Shown here in pieces: positions 3,962 through 13,827 of a stretch of DNA of 13,996 nt. Origin of the DNA: a virus; UHGV virus genome UHGV-0150765, one strand, 5' to 3'. The first letter of the stretch is position 1. Each line of letters opens with the position of its first letter. A program made the translations under genes and the position numbers. The notes beneath the pieces were generated by a model that had not been told where the DNA came from, did not search any database, and worked only from the letters and a program-made list of their open reading frames with translations.

Positions 3962-3990
3962 AATAATCTCAATTAAAAGGGCTTAGAACC

Positions 3991-4015
3991 ATTATACCAT
4001 CCTTGGTATAAAGCG
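3991..4015 (-). promoter_or_regulatory. candidate MotA-dependent middle promoter for 3554..3961
   Basis: Minus strand CGCTTTA (MotA-box-like, consensus TGCTTtA), 12-nt spacer, TGGTATAAT (-10 at 3996-3991). No GTTTAC -35 present. Confidence 0.45.
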
Positions 4016-4016
4016 G

Positions 4017-4544
4017 TTATGCGAGTACCGTCTTTAACCGTTCTTCAAACTTCCGAAGAGTATTTTGGCGTTCAGCTCTTTGCTTTTTGTAAGTTTCAAT
4101 ACGCTCTGAAATGAGAGTGTATCGTTCATTTACTGATTCTTTCATAAAATCAGGAATTTCACGAGAAGCTTTAATCTCATCAAATTTATCAATAACAGCT
4201 TGCTCTTCAGCAATTAAGTTATCATACATCAAAATATCTTTCTTGATGAACTCAATATCTTCTTGAGTTACACGAGATAATTTAGATGCTTTATCCTTTT
4301 TGTACTGTTCGTTAGTATCACGAGACCAGTGTAATGTACGATTTTTATTCGTATTCTTGTAAATTTCTACAATACCAATCTCATCGATAATAACGATCCA
4401 ATTCCAACGGGATTTGTAAATTTGTCCTCCATTAACAGTGATTTCACCTCCGATTGAGATGTCATTAAAGAACTTGCTTTGTGCTTCAGATTTAAATTTA
4501 CCATCGTTGTAATTTACCAGGTTGAAAATATCTTTAGCGTTCAT
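4017..4544 (-). CDS. hypothetical protein, 175 aa
   Basis: Track ORF 4017..4604 starts at a TTG inside the early-promoter box. First ATG at 4544-4542 has GGAGG SD. The promoter at 4573..4602 would place the mRNA 5' end just upstream. Confidence 0.75.
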   Translation of the reverse strand: MNAKDIFNLVNYNDGKFKSEAQSKFFNDISIGGEITVNGGQIYKSRWNWIVIIDEIGIVEIYKNTNKNRTLHWSRDTNEQYKKDKASKLSRVTQEDIEFIKKDILMYDNLIAEEQAVIDKFDEIKASREIPDFMKESVNERYTLISERIETYKKQRAERQNTLRKFEERLKTVLA

Positions 4545-4572
4545 TTTGTGTTCCTCCGTAGTTGATAGTTGT

Positions 4573-4602
4573 ATAGTACCACAGAGGAACGGTCTTGTAA
4601 AC
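4573..4602 (-). promoter_or_regulatory. T4-type early promoter for 4017..4544, with conserved downstream box
   Basis: Minus strand GTTTAC (4602-4597), 18-nt spacer, GTGGTACTATACAACTATCAAC. The 21-mer at 4561..4581 is identical to 6000..6020. Confidence 0.7.
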
Positions 4603-4907: not shown

Positions 4908-5008
4908 CACTACCTCCATTTACCAGTTTAATTCTAGTCATCTTTTTAATGGCAGTCCATATAATCTATTTCTGAACTGCCTTTTTGTCTTAGAAGGCCT
5001 CTTATGAA

Positions 5009-5977
5009 TTATTTCAGAAGAGTAACCTCAGCGATTTCTTCCCAACCGTTTTTGTCGGTCATAATAAAGTCAGCAAGATAAAGTGCAGTACGCAGTGAAA
5101 CATTGCGTAAACGGTTAACATTGACTTTCATCCATGATAATGCTTTATAAGTTTCTTCATCAGAAAGACCGCGTTTTTGCATCATGTCAGTTGAAAGAAT
5201 AACATCTTCAACCCTGACCATAATTTCTTCATTAGTGTGAACACCCAAATCTAAATAAACTGAGCGGGACACTAATGCTTGTAAATGTGGAGCAAGTTTA
5301 GTACCACGGTCTAATTCGCGGTCAATATCAACGTTTGTGATAAAAACAATCGTTCCTTTAAATTCAAACTCACGCTCAATGCCTTTTTCTTCTAAGTAAG
5401 AAGATGCAGTGCTCCAGCAGACTTTACGGGTCTCTCCAGTGTCCAGAGCAGCTTTCAGAAGATTAAGAATGTCCATATCAGAGAAAACATCCACATCATC
5501 AATCAAAAGGACAGAATTCTCTTCACGATTATTCCAGAGCTGTTCATAAAGACCGATACCAGAGATTTTACCATTAATGCTTTTATACTCAATGTATCCA
5601 ATATCATTTGCTTTATTTAAAGCTTTATCTAAAGAATACGTTTTACCAATACCTGCCGCACCAGAGATAATTAATGAACGAATATTTCCGTTAATAATAC
5701 CATTCGTCATCATTCCCATAACATTAAATCTTTTATTAATGCGGGTTTTCATATCTTCATATGATTCTTTAACTTCTTCAACTTTTACACCATCATATGA
5801 AATGTCTGATTTGTAAACCCAAACACCGCGACGTTTACCGTCAATTTCAACAAAAACTTTACCATCTCCTTGTGCATCTACTGGTGCATTATCAGGGAAC
5901 CATTCACCTAAGAACTCAAAAGTTCCAGAGATTTCTTTACCGAAGTAGATACCCTTATTGATAGTTACAGTTTTCAT
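5009..5977 (-). CDS. P-loop NTPase, Walker A GAAGIGKT and Walker B VLLIDDVD, 322 aa
   Basis: Track ORF 5009..6043 starts at a TTG inside the promoter. First ATG at 5977-5975 has GGAG SD. Walker A and B motifs read directly from the translation. N-terminal domain of about 110 aa has no recognised motif. Confidence 0.8.
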   Translation of the reverse strand: MKTVTINKGIYFGKEISGTFEFLGEWFPDNAPVDAQGDGKVFVEIDGKRRGVWVYKSDISYDGVKVEEVKESYEDMKTRINKRFNVMGMMTNGIINGNIRSLIISGAAGIGKTYSLDKALNKANDIGYIEYKSINGKISGIGLYEQLWNNREENSVLLIDDVDVFSDMDILNLLKAALDTGETRKVCWSTASSYLEEKGIEREFEFKGTIVFITNVDIDRELDRGTKLAPHLQALVSRSVYLDLGVHTNEEIMVRVEDVILSTDMMQKRGLSDEETYKALSWMKVNVNRLRNVSLRTALYLADFIMTDKNGWEEIAEVTLLK

Positions 5978-6011
5978 TTTATTCTCCAAATCCGTATCAG
6001 TTGATAGTTGT

Positions 6012-6041
6012 ATAGTACCATAAAGCTTTATGCTTGTAAAC
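6012..6041 (-). promoter_or_regulatory. T4-type early promoter for the P-loop ATPase gene, with conserved downstream box
   Basis: Minus strand GTTTAC (6041-6036), 18-nt spacer, TGGTACTATACAACTATCAAC. Lies directly downstream of the terminator at 6062..6090. Confidence 0.7.
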
Positions 6042-6061
6042 AACTTTGTGAAAAATTTTTG

Positions 6062-6090
6062 AAATAAAAAAGGGAGCCCGAAGGCTCCCT
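6062..6090 (-). terminator. rho-independent terminator with UUCG tetraloop, after the NTase gene
   Basis: Minus-sense RNA: AGGGAGCC-UUCG-GGCUCCCU (8-bp GC-rich stem) followed by UUUUUUAUUU. Begins 2 nt after the stop codon. Confidence 0.85.
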
Positions 6091-7105: not shown

Positions 7106-7575
7106 TCAGCCTTATATTCAATAACAGGACATACTTTAGCTTTACGAGCTTTTAAAAATTCAACGATAATCGATTTCTTGGGTTGAATAGGAGGTAAACC
7201 TTTATACGCCCTATCAATATTTTCTATGTGTAAAGCATAATCCTTTTTCCATTTATAATCTTTATATTTTTCATGCAAATGTGCAGGAATAACAAATGAA
7301 CCAATAATAAGTAAAACAAGCAAAATGGCAAGTATAAATGCTGATGGAATAAGAGTCCATAAACTACCAAAAATAAGCCATTTCTGTATGATTTCTGCGC
7401 AGATGATAGTTAGACCTGCGAGTATAGTACATCCGAAAAAAGAAACGAAAAATGTAGGGATAACAATAGACCAAAAGTATGCACACAGTGTCTTAGGTCG
7501 TTTCCATTCGTCGTTAAACAGTTTGAATAATTTATAGTGCCAAGAGTTTTCATTAATAACCATAATTATAATCAT
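7102..7575 (-). CDS. integral membrane protein, 157 aa, at least two TM segments
   Basis: Hydrophobic stretches FWSIVIPTFFVSFFGCTILAGLTIICAEI and LIPSAFILAILLVLLIIGSFVI. ATGA overlaps with the genes on both sides. A second in-frame ATG at 7563 is an alternative start. Confidence 0.75.
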   Translation of the reverse strand: MIIIMVINENSWHYKLFKLFNDEWKRPKTLCAYFWSIVIPTFFVSFFGCTILAGLTIICAEIIQKWLIFGSLWTLIPSAFILAILLVLLIIGSFVIPAHLHEKYKDYKWKKDYALHIENIDRAYKGLPPIQPKKSIIVEFLKARKAKVCPVIEYKAE

Positions 7576-8093
7576 CCTTTCATTGAAGGTGTAACGTATG
7601 TTAAATACTTAATCATAGCCTCAGCTTCTGATTTTGACAATGAAATTTCTTCACCGTTTTGGCGAATAGAAACAAAATCTGGATGACGGTCACCGCCAGC
7701 CTTTAAAACACACATGTAAGTATCAACTTCGCCTTCAATATTTGAAATGATTGAAGCAGTTCCACATGAATGTGGTTGTTGATAAACTAATACAGCTTTT
7801 CTTCCACCGTTTGACTGTTCATAAACTTTTAACACATCAAACAAATCACTTCTTTTATCAATAGCTAAGATGTTGTTTTCATCTTCAATATTAAATCCTT
7901 CGGATACTTCATAAAGTGTCACCCATAAATCACCAATATCAATAACAGCGTTCACTTTTCCATGACTTTCAAGAGCATTACAAATTTTCTTAATTTCATC
8001 ATAACTCATTTTAATAATATCATCTCCTTGAATAAGGAAGATGTCATTTTTAAATTCAACACGAATTAAACCACTTCCACTTGAAATAAACAT
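7572..8093 (-). CDS. hypothetical protein, 173 aa, paralog of the adjacent 185-aa protein
   Basis: ATG at 8093-8091 with GAGGAAA SD. Shares GFNIE and a C-terminal SxxEAxAxxxYLxxVxPxM motif with 8100..8657. Confidence 0.8.
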   Translation of the reverse strand: MFISSGSGLIRVEFKNDIFLIQGDDIIKMSYDEIKKICNALESHGKVNAVIDIGDLWVTLYEVSEGFNIEDENNILAIDKRSDLFDVLKVYEQSNGGRKAVLVYQQPHSCGTASIISNIEGEVDTYMCVLKAGGDRHPDFVSIRQNGEEISLSKSEAEAMIKYLTYVTPSMKG

Positions 8094-8099
8094 ATTTCC

Positions 8100-8657
8100 T
8101 CACTTTGAAATCATAGTTGGAATGACAGAATCAAGATAAGTCTTTAGCGCAATAGCTTCGTCTTTGGTAAATGTGACAATATGTGATCGAAAATCGTCAA
8201 TTTGGCGAATAGTTAAGACATCTCCATCTTCATAACATTTTGATACGTTTAAAACAGTTTCATCATTCTGACTGCAAGCGTTAGTAATAATAGCATTGCA
8301 ATTTTTAAGCCATTTTAAACTATGTTTTCTTTCATTAGAATAATAAAAATATTTAATCTTATCTATAAAACTATCCCAATGGATAACTGATAAACACATT
8401 GACTCGCTTTCAATATTAAATCCTGGGCATGAAGAATAAAAATGAACTTTATTCTCATCATTGATGCTTACAATTTTATCAGTATAAGAATTTTCAATTT
8501 GGGTTAAATGAATAATTTCGTTAGGCGTAAAATATAGCATATCGTCTTCTTGTGTCAAACGATACATATTATTTACTTTTTCTATAGCCAATTCACCAAA
8601 AAGTGAACTAACTTCTAATACTAATCGTTTCATATTGATTCTCTTCGACTCACTCAC
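8100..8657 (-). CDS. hypothetical protein, 185 aa (or 177 aa from ATG 8633), paralog of 7572..8093
   Basis: GTG at 8657 has AAGGAG 9 nt upstream; an in-frame ATG at 8633 has only a weak SD. C-terminal FTKDEAIALKTYLDSVIPTM matches LSKSEAEAMIKYLTYVTPSM of the neighbour. Confidence 0.75.
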   Translation of the reverse strand: MSESKRINMKRLVLEVSSLFGELAIEKVNNMYRLTQEDDMLYFTPNEIIHLTQIENSYTDKIVSINDENKVHFYSSCPGFNIESESMCLSVIHWDSFIDKIKYFYYSNERKHSLKWLKNCNAIITNACSQNDETVLNVSKCYEDGDVLTIRQIDDFRSHIVTFTKDEAIALKTYLDSVIPTMISK

Positions 8658-8659
8658 AA

Positions 8660-8764: not shown

Positions 8765-8792
8765 TCTCTTCTCCTTAACAGTTGACAAGATT

Positions 8793-8822
8793 ACTATAAC
8801 ATAACCTTGCCAACTTGTAAAC
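8793..8822 (-). promoter_or_regulatory. T4-type early promoter for the 185/173/membrane/NTase operon
   Basis: Minus strand GTTTAC (8822-8817), 18-nt spacer, TATAGT (8798-8793), then AAGGAG 17 nt downstream. Confidence 0.6.
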
Positions 8823-8824
8823 CA

Positions 8825-9367: not shown

Positions 9368-9555
9368 TATTCCACCACATATGAAAGAGAGAATATTGCA
9401 CACGCCATGTGAGTTGCAACTTCATCACACATATTATAACGTTTCTTAAGAAGTTCTACAAGTTCTTCACTAGTAACTTCATCCATGTCGACGAAAAAAT
9501 CACCATTAATGATGACGTAGATATTTCCTTCTTGATTAAGTGCTTCAATTTTCAT
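9367..9555 (-). CDS. hypothetical small protein, 62 aa, first gene after the early promoter
   Basis: ATG at 9555-9553 with GAGGAG SD 6 nt upstream. Promoter at 9584..9613. Confidence 0.65.
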
Positions 9556-9583
9556 GATGTTCTCCTCTTTATCCGATAGTTGT

Positions 9584-9613
9584 ATAGTACCACAGCTTAA
9601 ACGGAAAGTAAAC
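9584..9613 (-). promoter_or_regulatory. T4-type early promoter for the small-ORF run 9555..8825, with conserved downstream box
   Basis: Minus strand GTTTAC (9613-9608), 18-nt spacer, GTGGTACTATACAACTATC. Lies directly downstream of the terminator at 9622..9646. Confidence 0.7.
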
Positions 9614-9621
9614 CGGTAAAA

Positions 9622-9646
9622 TGAAAAAAGTCTCCCGAAGGAGACT
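9622..9646 (-). terminator. rho-independent terminator with UUCG tetraloop, after the rI.-1-like gene
   Basis: Minus-sense RNA: AGUCUCC-UUCG-GGAGACU (7-bp stem) followed by UUUUUUCA. Begins 5 nt after the stop codon. Confidence 0.8.
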
Positions 9647-10594: not shown

Positions 10595-11176
10595 CTAACC
10601 GAGCTTTTTAGTTAATTCATTCCAATGTTTTCTACACAAAGAAACATAAATTTCATCACCAATACAGATTTGATTACCTTCTTTAACTGGTGTTCCATCT
10701 TCCATTAATCGAGCTGTCATAATCGCTTTTTTACCACAATGACAAACTGCCTTTAGTTCAATAAGTTTATCTGCAATCGCTAAAAGTTCTTTAGAACCTT
10801 CAAACAATTTTCCAGCGAAATCAGTCCTTAATCCATAAGCCATAACAGGAACATTATATGTATCAACAATTCGGCTTAATTGATGCACCTGTTCAGTTTT
10901 TAAAAACTGTGCTTCATCTACAAATACACAATGAATATCTTTTTGTGCTTCAGCCCATTTATAGAACTCAAAAATATCCATATCATCCGTAATAATATTC
11001 GCTTCCTGTTTAATTCCAATGCGAGAAACGACTTCACAGACAGAATCGCGAGTATCAATAGCAGGCTTAAGAACTAATACACCCATTCCGCGTTCTTTAT
11101 AATTATGCGCAGCAGTCAAAAGAGAAGCAGATTTTCCAGCATTCATTGCTGCGTAAGTAAAAATTAAACTCGCCAT
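10595..11176 (-). CDS. tk: thymidine kinase, 193 aa
   Basis: P-loop AAMNAGKS near the N-terminus, Walker B-like VFVDEAQF, and a C-terminal zinc-binding Cys cluster (CHCGKK ... CIGDEIYVSLCRKH), as expected for type II thymidine kinase. ATG at 11176 with AAGGTGA SD. Confidence 0.93.
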   Translation of the reverse strand: MASLIFTYAAMNAGKSASLLTAAHNYKERGMGVLVLKPAIDTRDSVCEVVSRIGIKQEANIITDDMDIFEFYKWAEAQKDIHCVFVDEAQFLKTEQVHQLSRIVDTYNVPVMAYGLRTDFAGKLFEGSKELLAIADKLIELKAVCHCGKKAIMTARLMEDGTPVKEGNQICIGDEIYVSLCRKHWNELTKKLG

Positions 11177-11185
11177 ATCACCTTC

Positions 11186-11371
11186 TTAAAGCGTATTCAC
11201 ATAAGCTATTAATTCGTTTTCTTTCTTATCAAACCGATCAGCAAATTCTTCTTGCTGTTCGGGAGATAGCGGGCCATATTCATCATAAAAGGTGTTTGCT
11301 TCTGTATGCTCATCTAGAAGTTCATGGATAAGCTCAAACAATTTATCTTTTTGTTCTTTACTCAGACTCAT
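11186..11371 (-). CDS. hypothetical acidic small protein, 61 aa
   Basis: ATG at 11371-11369 overlaps the upstream stop (ATGA). Highly acidic (D/E-rich). Confidence 0.6.
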   Translation of the reverse strand: MSLSKEQKDKLFELIHELLDEHTEANTFYDEYGPLSPEQQEEFADRFDKKENELIAYVNTL

Positions 11372-11541
11372 ATATTAATTTCCAGGAGTTTTAAAATAAT
11401 TCGCTTTTGCTTAAATATTTCCATAGTTAAATGACCAGTATCTTTTTGACCGATTCCAATGGCAAAACCTTTATTGACAGCGAGTTCAATTAAATTATCA
11501 AGCTCACGTAACACTTCATATTGTAACTCAAAACTATTCAT
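11368..11541 (-). CDS. hypothetical small protein, 57 aa (MNSFELQYEVLRELDNLIELAVNKGFAIGIGQKDTGHLTMEIFKQKRIILKLLEINI)
   Basis: Hand-translated; not in the track. ATGA overlaps at both ends fill the gap between the flanking genes exactly. Confidence 0.5.
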   Translation of the reverse strand: MNSFELQYEVLRELDNLIELAVNKGFAIGIGQKDTGHLTMEIFKQKRIILKLLEINI

Positions 11542-11744
11542 TTTGGTTTACCTTCTTTAACGAAATCAGGATAAGGATAAAATCCTGAATAAAATCCTTC
11601 ACCTTTATGATTGATGCATCCTTTATTAGAACAATAGCACCAATAATCGAAATTACAAGCCATTTCATCGTTGCATAAAGCAAAAACAACCGGCCATTTA
11701 CACTTTTCACAGTGGGCATTTTTAAGAATACTAGTTTGGCTCAT
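11538..11744 (-). CDS. small Cys-rich protein, 68 aa, putative zinc-binding (CxxC, C, C, CxC, C)
   Basis: Seven Cys in MSQTSILKNAHCEKCKWPVVFALCNDEMACNFDYWCYCSNKGC. The ATG at 11744 is preferred over 11750 because AAGGTGA sits 7 nt upstream and it forms an ATGA overlap with the upstream gene. Confidence 0.65.
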   Translation of the reverse strand: MSQTSILKNAHCEKCKWPVVFALCNDEMACNFDYWCYCSNKGCINHKGEGFYSGFYPYPDFVKEGKPK

Positions 11745-13768: not shown

Positions 13769-13795
13769 GTTATTCTCCTCTTAACTGATAGAAAA

Positions 13796-13825
13796 ATTAT
13801 ACCACAGTCAAGAGGAAAAGTAAAC
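13796..13825 (-). promoter_or_regulatory. T4-type early promoter for regB
   Basis: Minus strand GTTTAC (13825-13820), 18-nt spacer ending in TGG, TATAAT (13801-13796). Confidence 0.75.
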
Positions 13826-13827
13826 AG

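Follow-up and report, generated by a model that had tools for sequence, protein, structure and literature searches.

The window analysed here, a stretch of viral DNA of 13,996 nt, shares 96–97% identity along its entire length with hundreds of Tequatrovirus genomes and is colinear with the nrdC.4–vs.3 region of T4. Every gene within it lies on the minus strand; consequently, its boxes, promoters and terminators have to be read as reverse complements. An earlier, sequence-only reading had described three copies of a short box associated with early promoters, two of them preceded by terminators, and these features proved to be real, although the strand had to be corrected, since they sit on the minus (coding) strand. 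A search of the whole window against Rfam at gathering thresholds returned no match, and the assignment of the elements to a known RNA family was rejected on that basis.

The box, an 18-mer of sequence GATAGTTGTATAGTACCA, occurs exactly three times in the window, at positions 4564–4581 (site A), 6003–6020 (site B) and 9575–9592 (site C), against a chance expectation of 0.04; none of 200 shuffled sequences reached three copies, and a search of the window allowing up to three mismatches revealed no additional copy. On the coding strand the box reads TGGTACTATACAACTATC and can be parsed as TGG-TACTAT-ACAACTATC, which, judged from its sequence, corresponds to the extended -10, the -10 element and the predicted first transcribed bases of a T4-type early promoter. 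In agreement with this assignment, the pattern GTTTAC-N18-TAnnnT was found six times in the window, always on the minus strand, where 0.15 matches were expected, and each of the six lies between genes, on the coding strand, with a Shine-Dalgarno (SD) sequence and an ATG downstream. They display the organization of T4-type early promoters, i.e. a GTTTAC -35, a TGn, a TAnnnT -10 and a location 20–45 nt upstream of an early gene start. The box is present in three of them (4602–4573, 6041–6012 and 9613–9584) and absent from the remaining three, which are located upstream of regB (13825–13796, with a spacer that pairs with the SD), upstream of mobD.2 (8822–8793, where a 15-bp hairpin encloses the -10) and upstream of nrdC.4 (1628–1599).

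The second component, CTTCGGG-N5-TTTTT, occurs twice in the window versus an expectation of 0.01, and at 6090–6071 and 9646–9629 a G+C-rich hairpin followed by a U-run and preceded by a stop codon constitutes a predicted intrinsic terminator. Very stable C(UUCG)G hairpins were reportedly described in T4 intergenic regions by Tuerk et al. in 1988, and terminators B and C of the window resemble them. The motif counts relative to expectation rule out a chance repeat or low sequence complexity as the source of the box. Thus, both the box-bearing GTTTAC-N18 promoters at three sites (three exact boxes, three promoter matches) and the UUCG-tetraloop terminators ahead of two of them were borne out. 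The distance from hairpin to GTTTAC, previously given as about 20 nt at both sites, had to be revised to 29 nt at site B and 15 nt at site C. Likewise, an identical 21-mer is indeed shared by copies A and C, but the match between A and B extends to 22 nt, and that between B and C is limited to the 18-mer. Beyond the box and the -35, identity among the three sites amounts to only 41–50% when they are compared in register.

Site B occupies the junction between nrdC.11 and nrdC.10. Its terminator stem-loop, AGGGAGCC-UUCG-GGCUCCCU (6090–6071), is a C(UUCG)G hairpin located 3 nt after the nrdC.11 stop codon, with 8 bp, six of them GC, a folding energy of -16.2 kcal/mol and a z-score of -3.5, and all panel genomes keep it apart from IME537, which has a truncated version. 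It is followed by a T-tract and an AT-rich tract, TTTTTTATTTCAAAAATTTTTCACAAAGTT (6070–6042), which supplies the terminator U-run and may additionally play a UP-element-like role; the same tract (TTTTTCACAAAAC.GTTTAC) is found ahead of most of the box-bearing promoters of T4. The early promoter itself (6041–6012) consists of the -35 GTTTAC (6041–6036), an 18-nt interval ending in TGG and the -10 TACTAT (6017–6012), and its spacer holds a 14-nt palindrome, CATAAAGCTTTATG (6032–6019). The -35, the spacer (AAGCATAAAGCTTTA) and the box of site B are identical to those of the T4 frd.3 promoter at 146,846, some 91 kb away. Box copy B (TGG-TACTAT-ACAACTATC, 6020–6003) probably includes the transcription start, near 6005 and 7 nt after the -10, and is followed by a leader and translation start, AACTGATACGGATTT-GGAGAATAAAA-TG (6002–5975), in which the ATG of nrdC.10 lies at 5977–5975. 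The SD segment GGAGAATAAAA (5987–5977) exactly matches the RegB/S1 cleavage consensus, which has been defined as GGAGAAUAAAA (PMC1702504).

At site C, the terminator stem-loop AGUCUCC-UUCG-GGAGACU (9646–9629; 7 bp, -10.8 kcal/mol, z -4.5) lies just after the rI.-1 stop codon and is followed by a run of six Ts (9628–9623). The early promoter (9613–9584) comprises GTTTAC (9613–9608), N18 and TACTAT (9589–9584), with the exact 18-mer box at 9592–9575, and would drive mobD.5 (ATG at 9555–9553). The T4 counterpart of this site, the mobD.5 promoter, which carries one mismatch in the box, was active during T4 infection, since a reverse-transcriptase stop in primer extension experiments was assigned to it, and its transcript was RegB-resistant (PMC1702504).

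The promoter of site A (4602–4573; GTTTAC 4602–4597, N18, TACTAT 4578–4573) begins right after the nrdC.9 stop codon, has the exact 18-mer box at 4581–4564, and would drive nrdC.8 (ATG at 4544–4542). This site had been described as a promoter with no terminator, and no intrinsic terminator is indeed present there, but a stem-loop does exist: a 13-bp promoter-spanning hairpin (4590–4550; -19.4 kcal/mol, z -4.0) in which a spacer arm (4590–4578) pairs with a leader/SD arm (4562–4550) that includes GGAGG, leaving the -10 and most of the box in the loop. The same layout is found in T4 at 53,914, and again at 166,778, where the base pairs differ. In the window itself, the regB and mobD.2 promoters likewise have hairpins with the -10 in the loop. 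A stem-loop of this type, overlapping the -10, constitutes a class within a published description of promoter/stem-loop elements, the PeSLs (PMC2839356). In T4, 14 of 35 early promoters show a spanning hairpin at z ≤ -3, with a mean z of -2.5, and the nrdC.8 SD of T4, which corresponds to site A, is moderately cut by RegB (PMC1702504).

These elements divide the window into units. The stretch from promoter C to terminator B contains ten ORFs, from mobD.5 to nrdC.11, with a further promoter inside it at 8822–8793, and its last gene, nrdC.11, encodes an RlaP-type nucleotidyltransferase (Pfam, above cut-off). Promoter B would drive nrdC.10 and then nrdC.9; the AAA matches of nrdC.10 fall below the Pfam cut-offs, and no terminator was found at the end of this unit, ahead of promoter A. 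The earlier statement that the cassettes delimit a nucleotidyltransferase operon and an ATPase cassette is therefore roughly right but approximate, given that internal promoter, the nrdC.10 unit without a terminator at its end and the AAA scores. For annotation purposes, the transcription units of the window are set by the predicted promoters at 13825, 9613, 8822, 6041, 4602 and 1628 on the minus strand, and the unit ends by the predicted terminators at 6071–6090 and 9629–9646 on the same strand.

To place these sites in the context of T4, 127.9 kb of its genome (1–78,000 and 119,001–168,903) was scanned. Seven exact box copies were found in this sequence, upstream of imm.1, nrdC.8, nrdC.10, e.8, frd.3, motA and in the ndd.6/denB region, together with one single-mismatch copy, the one upstream of mobD.5. 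Every T4 copy sits after GTTTAC-N18 on the coding strand, and most of them have in common the TTTTTCACAAAAC.GTTTAC tract upstream and a leader, AACTACTGATACGGATTTGGAGAATAAAATG, downstream; since most copies share both, the repeated unit is a cassette of about 100 nt. The sites of the window are orthologous to T4 sites at about 53.9, 55.4 and 58.8 kb, and a 161-nt query from site B finds 4–7 places per related genome. An extended consensus is common to about 35 T4 early promoters, and the box is its commonest exact form. The T4 early -35 has been established as GTTTAC at -36 to -31 (PMC1524935), and T4 early promoters have been described as a combination of UP element, -35, TGn, -10 and additional consensus regions, with Alt stimulation varying among promoters with identical -35, TGn and -10 (PMC2988021). 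The promoters of the window share with them the GTTTAC -35, the TGn, the -10, the AT-rich upstream tract and the consensus regions, and no difference was observed.

The PeSLs, as defined by Arbiol and colleagues in 2010, consist of a strong early promoter, a terminating or attenuating stem-loop and an AT-rich upstream tract, with an SD and an ATG at the 3' end, and they are present in many copies, mostly in hyperplastic regions, where they flank indels (PMC2839356). Comeau, Arbiol and Krisch (2014, PMC4122927) extended them to the T4/PST pair, with the consensus TTTACW-N17-TAYWAT, and placed degraded PeSLs near 47, 50 and 51 kb in the PST genome, inside the same nrdC region. All three sites of the window match the T4/PST consensus (TTTACA or TTTACT, N17, TACTAT). 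A stem-loop accompanies each of them, as an upstream hairpin at B and C and as a hairpin spanning the -10 at A, and an AT-rich tract upstream of the -35 as well as an SD and start codon at the 3' end are found at the sites. They are, moreover, dispersed repeats, with three copies in a 14-kb window and seven exact plus one near-exact copy in the T4 early regions, and in PST the same junctions hold all three copies of the box. The proposal that these are PeSL-type terminator/promoter cassettes was thus supported by the promoter consensus, the stem-loop, the AT-rich tract, the SD and ATG, and the multicopy occurrence in T4. When compared with the T4/PST PeSLs of PMC4122927, the elements belong to the same genus and agree in promoter consensus, layout, hyperplastic location and, at site B, indel association, with no difference in kind; the stem consensus given there, AGNA-loop-TCNT, fits sites B and C only loosely.

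The comparison with more distant systems is also informative. The PeSLs of RB49 and phi1 are, like the elements described here, composite, conserved over about 100 bp, multicopy and located upstream of small ORFs, they flank indels, as site B does here, and their stem-loops overlapping the -10 resemble that of site A (PMC2839356). However, RB49 uses near-perfect TTGACA/TATAAT promoters and polyG/polyC stems, in contrast to the GTTTAC -35 and the C(UUCG)G stems of the window, and mini-circles and reporter activity were demonstrated for the RB49/phi1 elements (PMC2839356). Arbiol et al. (2010) regarded the T-even elements as analogues, and not homologues, of the RB49 PeSLs (PMC2839356). Lambdoid morons and integron cassettes likewise involve small accessory genes that bring a promoter and/or terminator of their own into permissive intergenic positions. 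However, morons are not thereby mobilized through their regulatory sequences in the model proposed for them, and neither an integrase nor an attC-type site, as in integron cassettes, is present here. Taken together, these comparisons argue strongly, with a probability that we place at roughly 85%, that the elements are ordinary stop-and-restart signals of T4-like early transcription, belonging to the PeSL class already published for this lineage.

In such an arrangement, for which we infer both the start sites and the efficiency of termination, host sigma-70 RNA polymerase arriving from the upstream early unit would halt at the C(UUCG)G hairpin and its U-run at sites B and C. The T/A-rich terminator tract would then continue directly into the upstream region of what is predicted to be a very strong early promoter, composed of GTTTAC, an 18-nt interval ending in TGG (the extended -10) and TACTAT. 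Transcription would restart about 7 nt downstream, within ACAACTATC, and the RNA would begin with a short, conserved leader bearing a ribosome-binding site of the GGAG type. In the site B leader, the exact RegB/S1 consensus would expose the mRNA to early shut-off.

At site A, where the hairpin spans the promoter, a read-through RNA coming from nrdC.9 would fold so that the nrdC.8 ribosome-binding site is masked, and an RNA started at promoter A would leave it free. T4 early units may be insulated in two alternative manners, either by an upstream terminator or by a promoter-spanning hairpin that hides the ribosome-binding site of read-through transcripts. When terminator and spanning hairpin were compared as alternatives among the T4 early promoters, a strong spanning hairpin was present at none of the 6 promoters preceded by a terminator and at 14 of the 29 others, a difference that is not significant (Fisher p = 0.06; Mann-Whitney p = 0.10).

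We also examined gene content around the cassettes by alignment of the window with 15 related loci; for BYEP02 and ECO07P1, where poor sequence or paralogous promoter copies interfered with automatic chaining, anchored extraction was used. The earlier suggestion that genes are shuffled at the box sites in related genomes holds for site B, exactly at which at least six architectures were observed, but not for sites A and C, which are fixed in about 500 genomes. In the simplest state (S0), present in the window, T4, PST, T6, RB5, KarlGJung, Sf25 and SF7, the terminator is followed by the box promoter and nrdC.10. State S1 (Ge15, BECP11) adds orf66 and a second promoter, S2 (fPS-65, 235Ecol030PP) adds instead orf49/orf87 (DUF4031) and a second promoter, and S3 (FJ1, BYEP02) contains both modules in tandem with three promoters. 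In S4 (ECO07P1), the terminator is followed by a different promoter, an ORF annotated as an ADP-ribosyltransferase (ART), a second terminator and the box promoter, whereas in S5 (IME537), which otherwise corresponds to S2, the loss of 51 nt has brought the terminator stem and the -10 into direct fusion. Among about 677 records, rough counts gave about 300 for S0, 100 for S2, 65 for S1, 9 for S3 and 40 for the ART state.

The modules found in the nrdC.11–nrdC.10 gap include orf66, orf49/DUF4031 and the ORF annotated as a ModA-like ADP-ribosyltransferase. Among the inserted ORFs, DUF4031 alone was recognised by Pfam, and the ART-annotated ORF gave no match at E ≤ 0.01.

Every module inserted at site B is flanked by promoters, and the ART module of ECO07P1 carries its own promoter and terminator. 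The breakpoints of the inserts fall either at 5987–6001, just 3' of the box, or within the T-tract/AT-rich tract, and state S1 corresponds to S3 without one of its modules, joined inside a shared 13-mer, CTATCAAAACAAA; in general, the stretches shared at crossover points are short (13–40 nt). When mapped on neighbour-joining trees of the two flanking genes, the site B states appear in scattered positions, and the two trees are mutually discordant, a qualitative comparison of trees without bootstrap. In Karamvirus PS49, Moonvirus CF1 and Gelderlandvirus STML-198, the same junction is occupied by inserts that are flanked by promoters and accompanied by UUCG terminators. Furthermore, a promoter-orf66-promoter unit 95% identical in nucleotide and 98.5% in amino acid sequence is present in Mosigvirus SHSML-52-1, where it lies near nudE/e, among neighbours with no homologue in the window or in the T4 early regions.

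These observations suggest, as a tentative proposal that we consider possible but short of probable, that the nrdC.11–nrdC.10 gap is a landing pad conserved across Tequatrovirus, Karamvirus, Moonvirus and Gelderlandvirus, in which promoter-flanked modules are swapped through short promoter/leader and T-tract repeats and from which they can jump to other cassette sites, as with orf66 in Mosigvirus; the two alternative insulators described above form a separate part of this proposal. In the explanation favoured earlier, the cassettes, being portable and having short identical stretches in common, already double as module borders, and at site B small accessory genes with their own early promoters have been gained, lost and exchanged, with crossovers that would fall in the promoter/leader repeats or in the T-tract/AT-rich tract.

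The association with indels that characterizes PeSLs is strong at site B and absent from sites A and C, and other indels of the window map at a distance from promoters. Of 502 records, 500 match site C in one uninterrupted piece, and site A is intact in 499 records; with both sites intact in about 500 genomes, a cassette does not by itself confer plasticity on a site. Both exceptions at site C carry a deletion, with a breakpoint inside or beside the cassette. Sf25 is missing 145 nt, a stretch that takes in the -35, the terminator and the rI.-1 3' end, and this deletion, which ends 3 nt upstream of box C, shows no useful microhomology. Shinka carries a 4,278-bp deletion with a breakpoint inside box C. 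A box-to-box deletion was considered for Shinka and rejected, given that box C is joined via a chance 9-nt match, GTGGTACTA, within the nrdC.10 coding sequence (5307–5299). No genome joining two of the three box copies was found; the copies share only 18–22 nt. Away from promoters, a 450-nt ORF098/099 insertion maps at 8636–8659, and further indels affect tk.1–tk.3. An enrichment of indels at promoter junctions is not convincing, with about 3 of 8 variable loci located at 6 of about 30 junctions (rough binomial of about 0.18) and few independent loci. We conclude that the cassettes are good module borders and that plasticity is tied to particular junctions and not to every copy.

The main alternative to exchange through the cassettes is a purely regulatory one, according to which the similarity among copies reflects selection for an optimal early promoter and leader, and the site B indels are ordinary illegitimate or general recombination at a tolerant junction. 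Selection for promoter conservation alone could indeed mimic a recombination substrate. The sharing of the extended consensus by about 35 T4 early promoters, the retention of the box with one mismatch in another genus, the fixed sites A and C, the several indels of the window away from promoters, and the Shinka and Sf25 deletions, as microhomology or illegitimate events, are all in line with this explanation. On the other hand, spacers are not needed for promoter function and yet are identical between distant copies, the site B spacer being that of T4 frd.3 and nearly the same in Moonvirus CF1, which points to the copying of whole cassettes. Nor would a purely regulatory explanation account for the fact that each site B insert brings its own promoter, that S1 is S3 less one module and is joined exactly in the shared 13-mer, or that promoter-orf66-promoter moved as a unit to a non-homologous locus. 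We regard it as rather unlikely, if well worth keeping in mind.

A second alternative is that the 18-mer and the leader form a site for a phage factor, acting in early shut-off, in Alt/ModA-dependent promoter discrimination or as a 5' leader RNA element, and that this role, instead of basal promoter strength, accounts for the exact identity of the copies. Identity does continue for 9–12 nt downstream of the -10, in the transcribed region, promoters that coincide in -35, TGn and -10 are not equally stimulated by Alt (PMC2988021), and the site B SD is an exact RegB/S1 consensus. However, no factor is known to bind the box sequence, other active early promoters lack the box, among them those of regB and mobD.2 in the window, the mismatched mobD.5 copy of T4 is still active, and Rfam gave no match, so that this explanation appears improbable. 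Finally, it is very hard to credit homing endonucleases with the variability of site B: such genes do explain two other differences of the window (mobD, which replaces ORF095 and mobD.1-1, and a seg-like gene at 4993–5028 in T6, RB5 and IME537), but none of the site B inserts (orf66, orf49, DUF4031 and the ART-annotated ORF) encodes one, and S0 genomes exist both with and without neighbouring endonuclease genes.

The stop-and-restart cassettes described here leave the current understanding unchanged, as elements of this kind were already known. What is added is population-scale support, from about 500–680 genomes, for the published idea that promoter/terminator cassettes serve as module borders, with the qualification that certain junctions account for most of the border effect, which does not extend to each cassette copy. 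The most useful by-products of the analysis are the population-scale picture of the nrdC.11–nrdC.10 hotspot, the movement of promoter-flanked modules across genera and loci, and the frequency of promoter-spanning hairpins. In practical terms, the nrdC.11–nrdC.10 gap represents a convenient spot in which to seek accessory or host-interaction genes, as well as a tolerated insertion site for the engineering of T4-like phages.

The variable gap between nrdC.11 and nrdC.10, where site B (the box-bearing early promoter upstream of nrdC.10) lies, accommodates modules that are also found outside Tequatrovirus. Some Tequatroviruses carry a promoter-orf66-promoter module at site B, and a copy of it with 95% nucleotide identity occurs in a phage of a different genus, Mosigvirus SHSML-52-1 (L019, 2501-2833). 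This copy is placed near nudE/e at a non-homologous locus, surrounded by genes that have homologues neither in the window nor in T4 early regions. The nrdC.11-nrdC.10 gap is filled in ECO07P1, UFV-AREG1 and ACG-C40, as well as in Moonvirus CF1 and Gelderlandvirus STML-198, by a 161-aa ORF whose annotation is that of a ModA-like RNA polymerase ADP-ribosyltransferase (regions L015 5108-5846, L021 2459-3197 and L023 1201-1875). This ORF carries its own promoter and a terminator, GGGGACC...GGTCCCC; a Pfam search with the 161-aa product returned no match at E ≤ 0.01.

A box is also found at the junction of a deletion. Phage Shinka has lost a 4,278-bp stretch reaching from mobD.5 into nrdC.10, whose 5' portion is removed, and the junction (L022, 3208-3216) falls within a 9-nt match, GTGGTACTA, between the box of site C, the early promoter upstream of mobD.5 (window 9585), and the nrdC.10 coding sequence (5299-5307).

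Differences in gene content were also identified elsewhere in the window. Most relatives (PST, T6, RB5, IME537, FJ1, BECP11 and 235Ecol030PP) carry at 8636-8659 a 450-nt insertion holding two small ORFs (PST ORF098/ORF099), which is absent from the window, T4 and KarlGJung, and neither a promoter nor a terminator is located at this junction. Between tk and tk.3 (11176-11740), the relatives display at least three patterns of small ORFs, with the indels placed at overlapping stop/start codons and no promoter or terminator close by. The nrdC.4 gene is missing from 235Ecol030PP and apparently from ECO07P1; since this deletion (508-1551) has one end in the nrdC.3 start region and the other in the nrdC.4 leader, the nrdC.4 promoter would drive nrdC.3. 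Homing endonuclease genes are associated with two further differences: at 7113-8075, T4, RB5 and SF7 have mobD and the window has two ORFs (157 and 173 aa), and at the 3' end of nrdC.10 (4993-5028), T6, RB5 and IME537 carry an insertion of 731 nt that includes a seg-like endonuclease gene.

Many early promoters were observed to be enclosed by a hairpin in which the spacer pairs with the sequence directly 3' of the -10, often including the SD. On the minus strand, such hairpins span the promoters of site A, upstream of nrdC.8 (4550-4590, -19.4 kcal/mol), mobD.2 (8765-8824, -19.4 kcal/mol) and regB (13769-13827, -23.1 kcal/mol). At z ≤ -3, they were detected in 14 of the 35 GTTTAC promoters of the T4 loci (L002, L016-L018); none of the six T4 promoters with an upstream terminator has one, a contrast with the remainder that is not significant (p = 0.06). 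Within the site B spacer lies CATAAAGCTTTATG (6019-6032, minus), a perfect palindrome of 14 nt; this spacer is shared by the T4 frd.3 promoter and, apart from a single change, by Moonvirus CF1. Additionally, the nrdC.10 ribosome-binding region, GGAGAATAAAA (5977-5987, minus), matches the published RegB/S1 cleavage consensus at all 11 nt. GGAG is also present in the SD of sites A and C; RegB is reported to cleave nrdC.8 moderately, and mobD.5 to be resistant (PMC1702504).

Other intergenic gaps on the minus strand also contain hairpins. That between nrdC.10 and nrdC.9 (4920-5008; -17.0 kcal/mol when folded entire) harbours a 9-bp hairpin, GGCAGTTCA...TGGACTGCC, with no T-run behind the stem. 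Promoter remnants were found in the nrdC.8-nrdC.7 (3962-4016) and nrdC.4-nrdC.3 (515-568) gaps, one of which retains TGGTATAAT without GTTTAC, and both contain a CCAAGGATGG-type hairpin, as does the nrdC.4 promoter spacer. These remnants resemble the degraded 'half' PeSLs (promoter-early stem-loop cassettes) reported for the T4-like phage PST.
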